44,269 nucleotides of DNA from Bacteroidales bacterium (GCA_045639985.1 JAZUEE010000073.1:1-44269), one strand, 5' to 3'; positions 10,465 to 44,269 are shown, counted from the first letter of the stretch. Program-made: numbers and translations. Notes: generated from the letters alone by a model not told the origin.

Positions 10465-10469
10465 CGAGA

Positions 10470-10493
10470 ACAGGCCAATGCGGCCTGTTTTTG
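10470..10493 (+). terminator. Rho-independent terminator
   Basis: Stem ACAGGCC/GGCCTGT with loop AATGC, followed by TTTTTG. Confidence 0.8.
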
Positions 10494-10520
10494 TCGTAAG
10501 AAATAAAATGCCTATATTTG
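10490..10520 (+). promoter_or_regulatory. Bacteroidota-type promoter (TTTG 10490-10493, 19-nt spacer, TATATTTG 10513-10520)
   Basis: Exact consensus match. The -33 element overlaps the terminator U tract. Confidence 0.65.
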
Positions 10521-10589: not shown

Positions 10590-10603
10590 TAAAACAATTG
10601 GAT

Positions 10604-11821
10604 ATGTTACAAATTGAGTTACGGAAATTATCTTCTTTGAAACCGCACCCAGACAACCCGCGCAAATCAGTTCCGGGCGGCGTTGAAAAACTTGCGGAAT
10701 CAATCAAAGGCAATCCAAACTATTTCAATGCAAGGCCGATTGTGCTTTCCAATCGCACAGGCGAGTTTGTGATCATTGATGGCGAACGCAGAAGCGAAGC
10801 TGCATTGTATCTGGGCATGGAACAAGTGCCGACAATCCTCATGGAAGGATTGACATACGAAGATGAGTTGGAAATCCTTGTGAAAGGCAACACCCACACC
10901 GGCGTTTGGGATGAGGTAAAACTTGCCACCGATAAATGGAACGCGGCCAAACTCAAAGAATGGAACTGCGATGCCAAATGGAAAACCCCGGCCAAACCTG
11001 TTTCCGAAGATGATTTTGATGGCAACACGGAAAAGATAATCGTGCGCTGCAAGCCGGGCGATGTGTGGCAGCTTGGCAATCATCGTTTGATGTGCGGCGA
11101 TTCAGTCAAGTTGGAAGATGTGCAAAAGCTGATGGGGGGGGGTACAATAAAAGCTGACATGGTATTTACCGACCCGCCGTATGGCGTTTCTATTGGCGAT
11201 AAAAACAAAATGCTTAACTCCGTTCAGCGGTCGGGAAAGTGTGTTGAAAACATCGCAAATGACACCTTGACATCGGAAGAGTTATACCCTATTCTGGTAA
11301 ACGCCATGACCAATGCAAGGTTGAGTTGCAAGGATGATGCATCATATTTTGTTACTGCACCGCAAGGCGGCGAGTTGGGATTGATGATGATGATGATGAA
11401 GGATGCCGGATTGCCTGTACGCCACAATTTGATATGGCGCAAAAATAGTGCAACCTTCTCATTGGGCAGATTGGATTACGATTACCAACACGAACCGATA
11501 ATATACACGTGGACAAAATCGCACCACAATTACCGAGAAGGAAAGTATCGCACGACAATATGGGACTTTGACAAACCAAGGAAATGCGACTTACACCCGA
11601 CAATGAAACCCGTTGAATTGGTGGCCAATTGCTTGATGGATTGCACAAAAGAAAACGATGTTGTCCTTGATGTGTTCGGCGGCTCTGGTACAACAATGAT
11701 CGCCGCAGAGCAATTGAACCGAAAAGCATGTTTGATGGAGCTTGACCCACACTATTGCGATGTAATAATTGCACGATGGGAGAAATACACAGGCCAACAG
11801 GCTACAAGAATTGAAAATTAG
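10604..11821 (+). CDS. ParB-like nuclease domain fused to an N6/N4 DNA methyltransferase (405 aa)
   Basis: N-terminal ParB-type LKPHPDNPRK...IIDGERR. MTase motif IV is FTDPPYG and motif I is DVFGGSGTTMIAAEQL (beta-class order). The track start 10598 is TTG; the ATG is at 10604. Confidence 0.88.
   Translation: MLQIELRKLSSLKPHPDNPRKSVPGGVEKLAESIKGNPNYFNARPIVLSNRTGEFVIIDGERRSEAALYLGMEQVPTILMEGLTYEDELEILVKGNTHTGVWDEVKLATDKWNAAKLKEWNCDAKWKTPAKPVSEDDFDGNTEKIIVRCKPGDVWQLGNHRLMCGDSVKLEDVQKLMGGGTIKADMVFTDPPYGVSIGDKNKMLNSVQRSGKCVENIANDTLTSEELYPILVNAMTNARLSCKDDASYFVTAPQGGELGLMMMMMKDAGLPVRHNLIWRKNSATFSLGRLDYDYQHEPIIYTWTKSHHNYREGKYRTTIWDFDKPRKCDLHPTMKPVELVANCLMDCTKENDVVLDVFGGSGTTMIAAEQLNRKACLMELDPHYCDVIIARWEKYTGQQATRIEN
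11134..11142 (+). repeat. G9 homopolymer at the ParB/MTase domain junction
   Basis: Read directly as atg ggg ggg ggt. A change of one G in either direction meets a stop within 2-5 codons. Confidence 0.9.
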
Positions 11822-11915: not shown

Positions 11916-12419
11916 ATGGCAAACACAAAGTACAATGCGGAAATAGTAAAGGCGATTTGCGATGAATTGCGCAACGGCGAAAACATTGAACGTGTGTGTG
12001 TAAAGGTGGGGATAACCAAGACCACCTTTTTTGATTGGATCAAGCGCAAACCTAACTTTTCTAACGCCGTACAAAAGGCAAAGGATGAGTTCAGCAAAAC
12101 GATTGTGTCCAAGTTGGAAAAATCGTTGTGGGATGTTGCTATGGGATATTCTTACGAAGAAACAAAGACCGAGTACACAAGCGACAAGAACGGCAACCCA
12201 ATAATCAGCAAGCAGACAACCACCACGAAAAAGGTTGCGCCCAACGTGGCCGCATTGATATTTGCCTTAACGAACCGTGCGCCGGAAGAATGGAAGAATA
12301 GGCAGACAACCGAGGTAAACGCCAATGTCAAGGCCGAGAACGTGAACAAGCCAGATTTGTCGGCCATCCCGGATGAGTTGTTGGGACAGGTGTTGAACAA
12401 GATTAACGGCGGCGAGTAA
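11916..12419 (+). CDS. terS: terminase small subunit (167 aa)
   Basis: N-terminal HTH-type segment (YNAEIVKAICDELRNGENIERVCVKVGITKTTFFDWIKRKPNF) typical of small terminases. TAATG overlap with the large subunit gene. Confidence 0.7.
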   Translation: MANTKYNAEIVKAICDELRNGENIERVCVKVGITKTTFFDWIKRKPNFSNAVQKAKDEFSKTIVSKLEKSLWDVAMGYSYEETKTEYTSDKNGNPIISKQTTTTKKVAPNVAALIFALTNRAPEEWKNRQTTEVNANVKAENVNKPDLSAIPDELLGQVLNKINGGE

Positions 12420-13933
12420 TGGCAAATCTTTCTGCATTGGATTTCAAGATTGAAGGCGCACGCCGTAAATTGTTATGGTTCGCCCAATACATGAACCCAC
12501 GATTCAAGCCAACGCCGTTCCATACTGCGTATTACCGCGTGTTGGATATGTTCGCATCTGGGCAGATTCAAAACCTCATCATCCAGGCACCGCCGCAGCA
12601 TGGCAAATCGGAAGGATCAAGCCGTAATCTTCCGGCCAAGATGTTGGGAATGTTCCCGGACAAGAAAATAATCCTTTGTTCCTATGCTGCCACCATTGCC
12701 AAGGATTTCAACAGGGATGTGCAGAAGCTTATTGACACACCCGAATACAATGCCGTGTTCCCGGATACAACCTTGAATGGTTCAAACGTGGTAACGGTGG
12801 CCGCAAATAGTCTGCGAAATTCCGATGTGTTCCAGATCGTAGGCCACACGGGCGAATTTCGTGTTGTTGGCCGTGGTGGTGCGCTGACATCCAAAACGGC
12901 AGATGTCATGATATTTGATGACTTGTACAAGGATTCAAGCGAAGCAAACTCGCCGATTATCCGTGCCGGTGCATGGGATTGGTACACGAAGGTAGCACGA
13001 ACACGATTGCACAACGATTCGCAACAATTGATTGTGTTTACCCGTTGGCACCCGGAAGATATCATTGGCAAAATCATTGACAACGAACAAGTGATTGTTG
13101 TTGAGAAATGGGCAGATTTTGACAACATACCCAAGGGCGCATGGGTTCTGGTAAACTTTGAAGCAATCAAGACAAGCGACCCCACGGAAATTGACCCACG
13201 TGAAAAGGGTATTGCCCTGTGGAATGACCGCCATAGCATTGAACGATTGGAAGCGATGCGCAAGATTGACCCCGTAGGCTTTCAATGCTTGTACCAAGGT
13301 TCGCCCGGCGATGCGGCGGGCAGATTGTATCAGCCATTCAAGACGTGGGTTGATAAGGCCGATTGGGGAACATTGGTGCGCAAGGGTTGTTACATTGATG
13401 TGGCCGATGAAGGCAACGATTTCTTGGCTGGTGCGACATACGACATTTACAAGTCAACGGAACATGCGTGGAACGAACACAAGAAACGATTTGAGCCGAT
13501 TTTGTATGCGCTGATAACCGATGTCCAGTATACTGATGAGAACACCGATGTAACAACGATTACGGTGCCGCGCATGATAAACGAACAGGGTGCGGAAAAA
13601 GTATGGGTTGAGAGCAACAACGGCGGTTCGCAGTTTGAAAAGACAATCAAACGCAAGGTTCGTGCGATAACGGTGCCATTCTATCAGGGCGCAAACAAGG
13701 AAAGCCGAGTTGTTACCAATGCGCCATTTGTCAACCAATCAATCGTAATGCCGTTTGGATGGGAAACGAGATATCCAAAGTTCTACAAAGCAATTACCGA
13801 GTTTCTCCGTGCCTTTGGTGCAAACGAACACGATGATGCTGCCGATATGCTCACGGGCATCTACGAAAAGGAAATTGCAGACAACAACACAATGCCATAC
13901 GGCCACGCAAACAGGGGTGTGCGTGTTCATTAG
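12419..13933 (+). CDS. terL: terminase large subunit (504 aa)
   Basis: Walker A QAPPQHGKSEGSS, Walker B VMIFDDLYKD, C-terminal nuclease-type acidic motifs (HDDAADML). Confidence 0.88.
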   Translation: MANLSALDFKIEGARRKLLWFAQYMNPRFKPTPFHTAYYRVLDMFASGQIQNLIIQAPPQHGKSEGSSRNLPAKMLGMFPDKKIILCSYAATIAKDFNRDVQKLIDTPEYNAVFPDTTLNGSNVVTVAANSLRNSDVFQIVGHTGEFRVVGRGGALTSKTADVMIFDDLYKDSSEANSPIIRAGAWDWYTKVARTRLHNDSQQLIVFTRWHPEDIIGKIIDNEQVIVVEKWADFDNIPKGAWVLVNFEAIKTSDPTEIDPREKGIALWNDRHSIERLEAMRKIDPVGFQCLYQGSPGDAAGRLYQPFKTWVDKADWGTLVRKGCYIDVADEGNDFLAGATYDIYKSTEHAWNEHKKRFEPILYALITDVQYTDENTDVTTITVPRMINEQGAEKVWVESNNGGSQFEKTIKRKVRAITVPFYQGANKESRVVTNAPFVNQSIVMPFGWETRYPKFYKAITEFLRAFGANEHDDAADMLTGIYEKEIADNNTMPYGHANRGVRVH

Positions 13934-22480: not shown

Positions 22481-23252
22481 GATTGGAAAACACGATGTGG
22501 TGTTGTACGATTCAATAGAAGAATTGCCAATTGCCAGATTCCACAAATACCAAAAGTTCCTGTTGGTTGATTCCGGGATCGGGGCAACCATGGAAGATTT
22601 TGACAAGCACATTGAAAAGGCACGCCGATTCTGCATGCTGAATGACACGGCCAACGCACAAAAGGAGTTGGACAATTTGCGCCAATGTGTGTTCATGATC
22701 CAAAATGGCATATCTCCCAAACATTTGGCCTTTGCCTGTCTGGTATTTGCAATTGACAACACCCAATGCGTTGATATTTCGGATGATGGTTTGGCAAAGG
22801 TTGTTGCAACATTTGCAGATGCACCAAATCAAGAATTGACCGACCGCATGGATTCGGTCAAAAAAAAAATAGATGCTGAAATAACATTGTACTTTCCCAA
22901 TCTCAACGAGGATTCGGATGTTAAAGATTATTACGAAAAGGTGCGCAAGCGCACGTTGTTGGTCTTGCAAAACATCATGGCCGGGGAATCACGCCCGGAT
23001 GAAACAAGCGATGTTGACCGATTGACAACGGAGTTAATTTGCTACATGCACCCACAGGTATTTAACGGCTCTGCATCGGTGGAAATACAATTTGACCGCC
23101 AATTTGAAAACCTTTGCTTGACCTTGGCTGGGCAATTGAACGTAAATCCCAAGGATTATACGGTCTTGGAGTTTTACAATGCGTTTGAATACTTGAAAGA
23201 AAAGGCCAAATCCAACGCACGGGCGCAAAAGCAAGGCCGTACAGGCCGTTAA
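22467..23252 (+). CDS. hypothetical protein in tail-assembly-chaperone position (261 aa)
   Basis: Immediately upstream of the tape measure gene. Contains an internal A10 tract. Confidence 0.55.
   Translation: MKTVKIGKHDVVLYDSIEELPIARFHKYQKFLLVDSGIGATMEDFDKHIEKARRFCMLNDTANAQKELDNLRQCVFMIQNGISPKHLAFACLVFAIDNTQCVDISDDGLAKVVATFADAPNQELTDRMDSVKKKIDAEITLYFPNLNEDSDVKDYYEKVRKRTLLVLQNIMAGESRPDETSDVDRLTTELICYMHPQVFNGSASVEIQFDRQFENLCLTLAGQLNVNPKDYTVLEFYNAFEYLKEKAKSNARAQKQGRTGR
22860..22869 (+). repeat. A10 homopolymer inside 22467..23252
   Basis: Read directly as gtc aaa aaa aaa ata. A9 gives an immediate TAG; A11 reaches TGA within 6 codons. Confidence 0.9.
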
Positions 23253-43963: not shown

Positions 43964-44257
43964 ATGCAACAATTGAAACCAATGACCGTTCCGATAATGG
44001 CCGTGCGTCATTACGGCGCGGAACACCAGAAGAAGAAAGCCATTGAAGAAATGGGCGAGTTGATAACTGCCTTGTCGCGTGAACAGGATGGCCGAGCCAC
44101 CCCGGAAGAGGTAATAACCGAGATTGCCGATGTGCAAATAATGGTGCGCCAATTGGCCTTGATCTACGGCCCGGACAAAGTGGCCAAAGAGATAGACCGA
44201 AAGGAACGCCGATTGATTCGCTGGATGGACAAGGAAAACAAACAATCAAAAGAATAG
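43964..44257 (+). CDS. MazG-like nucleotide pyrophosphohydrolase (97 aa)
   Basis: AIEEMGELITAL (ExxE) and VITEIADVQIMV (ExxD) match the all-alpha NTP-PPase metal-binding pattern. Start at the ATG at 43964, 1 nt after the upstream stop. Confidence 0.6.
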   Translation: MQQLKPMTVPIMAVRHYGAEHQKKKAIEEMGELITALSREQDGRATPEEVITEIADVQIMVRQLALIYGPDKVAKEIDRKERRLIRWMDKENKQSKE

Positions 44258-44269
44258 CGCAGTATGGTA
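44129..44269. repeat. Terminal direct repeat, exact copy of 1..141
   Basis: Direct comparison of both ends. Confidence 0.95.

Follow-up and report, generated by a model that had tools for sequence, protein, structure and literature searches.

The DNA analysed here (the window, 44,269 bp) is an entire contig, C73, of a metagenome-assembled genome (MAG) of a Bacteroidales bacterium (GCA_045639985.1, JAZUEE010000073.1:1-44269). Since it carries an exact direct terminal repeat of 141 bp (1-141 and 44129-44269), it represents a complete phage genome of ~44.1 kb, assembled as a circle and binned into the bacterial MAG. The phage encodes a ParB-like domain fused to a beta-class DNA methyltransferase (10598-11821, identified from the open reading frame, Pfam, and PHROG), and a homopolymer of nine G lies inside this gene at 11134-11142. 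The gene is on the + strand, as are all domains, codons, and genes for which window coordinates are given below, and it is located directly 5' of the terminase genes terS and terL. The function of the G9 tract is the subject of this work.

The open reading frame as called mechanically starts at TTG 10598 (407 amino acids (aa), the numbering used below), the likelier start is ATG 10604 (405 aa), and the stop codon is TAG at 11819-11821. In the fusion protein PF01555 scores 105.7 bits (cut-off 26.7), with an envelope that begins at residue 187, and Pfam ParB_N scores 25.3 bits, slightly below its cut-off of 26.3. The N-terminus is matched by PHROG ParB families (best E = 1.8e-23) and the open reading frame by PHROG 498, 'DNA methyltransferase' (E = 2.7e-103). 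There are more than 8000 full-length homologues of the fusion protein, the closest with 68% identity. The ParB-methyltransferase family is large, its members are nearly always fused, and 917 phage records contain it.

The G9 tract had been noticed in a sequence-only reading of the window, and its position is confirmed. It reads ATG GGG GGG GGT, encoding Met179 and Gly180-182, in the context ...CTG ATG GGG GGG GGT ACA..., and it is in frame (ON) in this assembly. The two stop codons predicted for a change of one nucleotide can both be read in the sequence. Loss of one G (G8) gives ATG GGG GGG GTA CAA TAA, with the TAA at 11148-11150, and gain of one G (G10) gives ...GGG TAC AAT AAA AGC TGA, with the TGA at 11155-11157. 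The truncated products would be about 183 aa (G8) and 187 aa (G10), counted from TTG 10598.

Neither composition nor codon usage explains the tract. No other G or C run of at least 7 occurs in the 44,269 bp, where ~0.11 runs of G9 are expected under independent bases, and G runs of at least 6 are depleted in the window (2 observed versus 7.4 expected for independent bases). GGG is the rarest glycine codon of the phage (7.5% of 705 Gly codons in long + strand frames). Only one of the 55 Gly-Gly pairs in long frames is encoded by GGG-GGG, and that pair is the G9 tract.

Poly-G tracts in homologous genes

We compared the gene with a protein-similarity set of 240 loci from IMG/VR, GTDB genomes, and JGI/ENA metagenomes, which were not chosen for the presence of a tract. 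G7-G11 occurs at the same codons in 29 of 220 non-identical homologues, and the remainder have runs of 5 or fewer, so that the distribution is bimodal. Seventeen of the poly-G genes are in frame and 12 are shifted exactly at the tract, in both directions (+1 and -1), while 187 tract-less genes are in frame and none is shifted at the site. IMG/VR was also scanned for at least eight G located 10-30 nt ahead of a stretch coding for FTDPPYG, which yielded 63 contigs; 31 of these are in frame, 28 are shifted, and four are unassigned. The ratio of 31:28 is biased, since in-frame G7 alleles cannot match a pattern of G8 or more, and proportions were taken from the 17:12 set. Frameshifted (OFF) alleles make up about a third to a half (30-45%) of tract carriers. 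When both sets were combined, the same-site G7-G11 tracts fell into 71 clusters at 90% or higher nucleotide identity, and thus they are not copies of one phage. The on and off states are scattered across these 71 lineages.

At the protein level Leu-Met-Gly-Gly is conserved across the family (alignment A1). GGG-GGG encodes 31 of the 51 Gly-Gly pairs found here, whereas two other conserved pairs of these genes, taken as controls (in PQGGE and FGGSG), have it in 3 of 252 cases (Fisher p = 2e-25). Other glycine codons are GGG in 18% of cases.

A frameshift-aware tblastn census of 236 loci gave 17 frameshift junctions: 15 coincide with G7-G10 runs, and A or T runs account for none. As a control, 16 genes have an A run of at least 8, and none of them is frameshifted at the A run. 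G runs of at least 8 are present in 46 of 234 genes (~20%). Their density inside the gene is 16.3 per 100 kb, against 0.89 (G) and 0.54 (C) in flanks on the same contigs, an enrichment of ~18-fold.

Poly-G tracts appear to have arisen convergently in the ParB-methyltransferase gene. On a tree of C-terminal halves the same-site tract needs at least 15 gains or losses, and at least 10 of them are forced by supported branches. Moreover, the tracts occupy at least four different positions in the gene, all downstream of the ParB core; homologues that lack a tract at this site often have a G8-G9 tract elsewhere in the gene, and five of them are frameshifted there. Tracts in the interdomain linker replace this site in L184-L186, L192, L199, L201, L211, and L087, three of which are frameshifted. 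In the nearest relatives of the window gene (L169, L170, L173) the tract is at 'NYRGGE', in L172 and L032 it is at 'PQGGG', and in L219 and L241, both frameshifted, it precedes motif I.

The out-of-frame alleles retain full-length downstream halves. For three pairs made up of two out-of-frame alleles each (L303/L305, L287/L305, and L275/L301), the ratio of nonsynonymous to synonymous substitution rates (dN/dS) in the downstream half is 0.07-0.10 at dS 0.14-0.30. These halves thus remain under purifying selection and the out-of-frame alleles are still functional genes, as a reversible shift requires. Close relatives can differ in the tract as well: L270 has a shifted G9 and L295 an in-frame G8 at 95.8% identity between the two, and dN/dS is ~0.05-0.07 in both halves. 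Furthermore, an identical out-of-frame allele was recovered from different datasets.

There is direct evidence that poly-G in this enzyme family changes length on laboratory timescales, since near-isogenic Bordetella phages differ in the tract of bpm and have identical flanks (861 nt). The tract is G8 and in frame in BPP-1, and G9 in BIP-1 and G10 in BMP-1, both out of frame; the independent isolate vB_BbrP_003 has G8. The methylase poly-G of BPP-1 (Liu et al. 2004) is cited in a recent preprint (bioRxiv 10.1101/2025.10.21.683753). Similar to the window gene, bpm encodes a phage beta-class PF01555 methyltransferase (251 aa), its poly-G encodes Gly-Gly in a loop, and the tract is the only G or C run of at least 7 in the genome. 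In contrast to the window gene, bpm has no ParB domain and its tract is before motif I (MPGGVV), not motif IV; its carrier, unlike the window phage, is a temperate podovirus of a proteobacterium.

Domain layout of the fusion protein

To place the tract in the protein we used an AlphaFold model of the fusion (25 homologues, mean predicted local distance difference test (pLDDT) 80). The ParB/Spo0J-like N-terminal domain comprises residues 7-121 (10616-10960), as judged from secondary structure and pLDDT, Spo0J, and PHROG; PDB Spo0J 1vz0 matches residues 10-98 (E = 1.5e-5). It is followed by an interdomain linker, residues 122-155 (10961-11062), which has no secondary structure in the model and is of variable length in alignment A1. 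The methyltransferase catalytic domain, residues 156-407 (11063-11818), was defined from the model, the alignment with Bpm, relatives in the PDB, and motifs, and it is matched by CcrM, DpnA, M.PvuII, and M.MboIIA. Motif IV, DPPY, is at 11171-11182 (residues 192-195) and motif I, FGGSGTT, is at 11675-11695 (residues 360-366). DPPY ahead of FGGSGTT, together with the PF01555 match, places the enzyme among the beta-class amino-methyltransferases. A DPPY motif suggests an N6-adenine enzyme, and the protein is predicted from it to be an N6-adenine methyltransferase.

In the model the first elements of the methyltransferase fold are strands 156-159 and 162-166 and helix 172-178, and Gly180-182 form the loop ahead of strand 186-191, which leads to DPPY. 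Consistent with this, the stand-alone methylase Bpm aligns to residues 154-393 of the window protein, ~31 residues precede the DPPY strand in CcrM, and the stand-alone ParB of a sibling phage (described below) ends at the equivalent of residue ~126-133. The true joint between ParB and methyltransferase is therefore the linker at residues 122-155, and the G9 tract lies ~25-60 residues inside the methyltransferase fold. The sequence-only reading had put the tract exactly at the joint, which does not agree with a ParB domain that ends at ~121, a fold that begins at ~154-156, and glycines inside the enzyme. The tract looked like a domain joint because the PF01555 match begins only at residue 187.

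The in-frame ATG at 11159-11161, which had been proposed as a restart codon, does exist 17 nt past the tract (Met188 from TTG 10598, Met186 from ATG 10604), but it lies four codons, not five, before the D of DPPY. Met188 is a hydrophobic residue of strand 186-191, and the CcrM residue aligned to it is Leu. It is equally conserved (nearly invariant in alignment A1) in tract-less homologues, and thus nothing ties it to re-initiation and it is unsupported as a restart codon.

Two sibling phages of the P0085 phage, with identical TerS, encode a stand-alone ParB instead of the fusion (L250:1161-2968 and L251:999-1427). The stand-alone protein is 142 aa long; it matches the N-terminal 126 residues of its fused relative with 92% identity and stops at that point. 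Because it occupies the same locus in the sibling phages, the short ParB-only product of an OFF allele is plausibly functional. A comparison of related phages for fused or separate genes, which had been suggested at the outset, thus finds the fusion kept almost throughout, with ParB-only siblings in addition. In L250 an IS605-type OrfB/TnpB gene lies just upstream of the stand-alone ParB.

A candidate contingency switch and its alternatives

We consider that the G9 tract is probably (at roughly 70%) a slipped-strand contingency switch of the methyltransferase, seen here in the ON state, because a comparable run is retained at these codons in many relatives, of which roughly one third to one half are frameshifted there. 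Slippage of DNA polymerase during phage replication would add or remove a G at high frequency. A G9 genome would be translated into the full ParB-methyltransferase, while in a G8 or G10 genome translation would stop 2-5 codons past the tract, giving a product of ~185 aa with the whole ParB-like domain and without the catalytic core. The phage population would then always be a mixture of methylating and non-methylating genomes, which would hedge between hosts that restrict unmethylated DNA and other hosts or conditions where being methylated, or making the methyltransferase at all, is disadvantageous. Slipped-strand phase variation had already been proposed in the sequence-only reading, and the homologues agree with it: they keep G7-G11 beyond what codon usage predicts, many are shifted at the tract in one direction or the other, and the shifted genes remain intact in other respects and under purifying selection.

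For this phage itself, slippage and length heterogeneity are suggested by its relatives, and the activity of the enzyme, its target, and the selective benefit are predicted. The target of methylation is most likely the phage's own DNA, since no tyrosine integrase was found on this contig and no copy of the methyltransferase protein was found in 151 genomes of the host (MAG) family. For the same reason the term 'phasevarion', used earlier for this locus, is unlikely to apply in its strict sense of a switch that controls a host regulon. The benefit may be bet-hedging against restriction and methyl-dependent defences.

Several points weigh against a switch. About 80% of family members are stably fused and have no homopolymer, and thus the family does not depend on the switch. 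Fused orthologues without a homopolymer had been named in advance as an observation that would refute a switch; they are common, but they do not refute it, since a large recurrent minority has the tract. The comparison sequences are mostly short-read metagenome assemblies, some of low coverage, and some homopolymer miscalls are possible among them. Finally, three IMG/VR sequences that are 95-97.6% identical (L287, L303, and L305) all have the same out-of-frame G8, which would fit recoding at least as well as DNA switching.

Recoding is the main rival. It holds that the DNA tract is fairly stable and that slippage of RNA polymerase or ribosomal frameshifting gives a fixed mixture of short and long products from either genotype, with parallels in tail-chaperone G/GT and dnaX. 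Only the L287/L303/L305 lineage favours it: a search of IMG/VR with its flanks found these three contigs and no in-frame sibling, and the low downstream dN/dS given above includes these sequences. The stand-alone ParB at the same locus in sibling phages, which makes the short product plausibly functional, would also suit a fixed mixture. However, +1 and -1 alleles both occur and the majority is in frame, while a directional programmed shift predicts otherwise. The tract also differs in length between L270 and L295 and between the near-isogenic Bordetella phages. Moreover, G runs are poor substrates both for the known bacterial transcriptional slippage, which uses A/T runs, and for -1 ribosomal frameshifting. 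We therefore regard recoding as unlikely.

It is also improbable, slightly more so, that the tract has no function, i.e., that a glycine loop is tolerated there, GGG arose by chance or mutational bias, and the frameshifts are assembly or sequencing errors or pseudogenes. The conserved Leu-Met-Gly-Gly means that the glycines need no special cause, a single G9 in 44 kb has an expectation of ~0.1 under independent bases, and the quality of the comparison assemblies is as stated above. Four results nevertheless exclude chance and assembly error for the family: the excess of GGG-GGG at the site relative to its controls, the 18-fold higher density of G runs in the gene than in its flanks, the lack of shifts at A runs, and the low dN/dS. 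The tract lengths are bimodal (4 or fewer versus at least 7) in a set that was not selected for the tract, and tracts occur at other positions of the gene. The complete absence of frameshifts at A runs of at least 8 in the same genes rules out general homopolymer sequencing error for the family, and the intact downstream halves with low dN/dS rule out pseudogene decay. In addition, different datasets yielded the same out-of-frame allele, and Sanger-era genomes of the Bordetella phages show G8, G9, and G10.

The idea that translation restarts at ATG 11159 after a frameshift, so that the tract toggles between a fused enzyme and a split but active stand-alone methyltransferase, is very improbable: the ATG is in frame and preceded by the A-rich TACAATAAAAGCTGAC, of a kind favoured before start codons in Bacteroidota, and the PF01555 envelope begins close by, but the resulting 220-aa protein would be missing strands 156-166 and helix 172-178 with the invariant H162, C166, G167, and D168, an N-terminal element that the stand-alone relatives Bpm and CcrM include, Met188 is conserved without the tract, and tracts in mid-domain or before motif I cannot work by restart.

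The slipped-strand switch may be part of a wider pattern, which we propose only tentatively. Poly-G switches would have arisen repeatedly in this family, at four or more positions and in tailed phages of gut, rumen, and other habitats, and a switch may choose between ParB alone and ParB-methyltransferase, both of them functional; some lineages may have 'off' as their standing genotype, decoded by slippage. A toggle between ParB alone and the fusion is suggested because every tract follows the ParB-like domain and ParB occurs by itself in sibling phages.

Related systems and genomic context

A simple-sequence repeat in a methyltransferase open reading frame allows reversible ON/OFF switching by slipped-strand mispairing (PMC13076061; PMC12003011). 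ON/OFF phase variation is found mainly in Type III mod genes and in few Type II genes, and no phase-variable phage enzyme is listed (PMC13076061). The bacterial examples include the mod phasevarions of Haemophilus, Neisseria, Moraxella, and Helicobacter, and G-tract methyltransferases of H. pylori such as M.Hpy300X. Similar to these, the window gene has its repeat within the methyltransferase open reading frame. The bacterial genes, however, are chromosomal, mostly Type III or I, often accompanied by a restriction subunit, and act on host expression, while the window gene is an orphan Type II-like gene that is phage-borne, without a detected integrase, and its predicted OFF product keeps a complete ParB-like domain.

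Homopolymers in phages, such as the poly-G genes of Fletchervirus and loci of T2/T4, lead to mixed populations and bet-hedging (bioRxiv 10.1101/2025.10.21.683753). Those loci affect host recognition and other functions, whereas the window gene concerns DNA modification. The same preprint surveyed coliphages for runs of 6 or more and cites the poly-G of Fletchervirus receptor-binding genes (Sorensen et al. 2021, Cell Rep 35:109214); according to it, the Fletchervirus and BPP-1 tracts were not studied further. The window gene resembles the ParB/N6_N4 fusions of PHROG 498 in architecture, in the motif order of DPPY before FGGSGTT, and in its place upstream of terS/terL, but ~80% of these members have no homopolymer. 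Switches of this kind are thus already known. In a literature search for the poly-G pattern in ParB-methyltransferases no paper was found, and how widely and convergently the switch occurs among these genes appears to be undescribed so far.

If the switch reading is correct, carriage of a tract by ~20% of genes would place the family among the commonest contingency loci in phages. Phage methyltransferases, which are very frequent in gut phages, are a main route of escape from restriction. Should many of them switch at high frequency, a phage stock or a natural population would be epigenetically mixed, which bears on the measurement of host range, on methylome-based linking of phages to hosts in metagenomes, and on models of the arms race between phages and defence systems. 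For gene calling, split 'ParB' and 'methylase' open reading frames may be a single phase-variable gene. The pattern in the family, with convergent positions, 30-45% OFF alleles, and out-of-frame halves under selection, would also provide an easily cloned test system for bet-hedging.

Split annotations of this kind were found in phage records. In three Streptococcus Javan prophages (MK448960, MK448762, and MK448954) the family match spans two annotated 'DNA modification methylase' coding sequences, suggesting that split genes also occur in prophages of cultured strains.

Several searches looked for the window phage, or its tract, in other samples. The DNA of the gene had no match in 50,697 phage records, and exact-protein look-ups of the TerL and TerS of this phage in other samples gave nothing on record. 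Scans of IMG/VR with the tract flanks and a variable gap returned 0 matches both for the window and for the P0085 phage.

Downstream of the gene, the terminase small subunit is encoded at 11916-12419 (PHROG 309, E = 4.6e-27) and the large subunit at 12419-13933 (PHROG 38, E = 2.7e-80). Upstream of the methyltransferase start there is a hairpin with a 9-bp stem followed by T5 (10469-10489) and then a TATATTTG box (10513-10520), which resembles the -7 promoter element of Bacteroidota. The methyltransferase gene may form its own transcription unit.

The gene contains a second repeat, (ATG)5, at 11384-11398, which encodes MMMMM. Homologues have 4 to 7 Met at this position, always in frame (alignment A1), so that the copy number of this trinucleotide repeat varies without a change of frame. 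In another register the same repeat reads (TGA)6 (11382-11399). The longest homopolymer in the window is an A10 run at 22860-22869.

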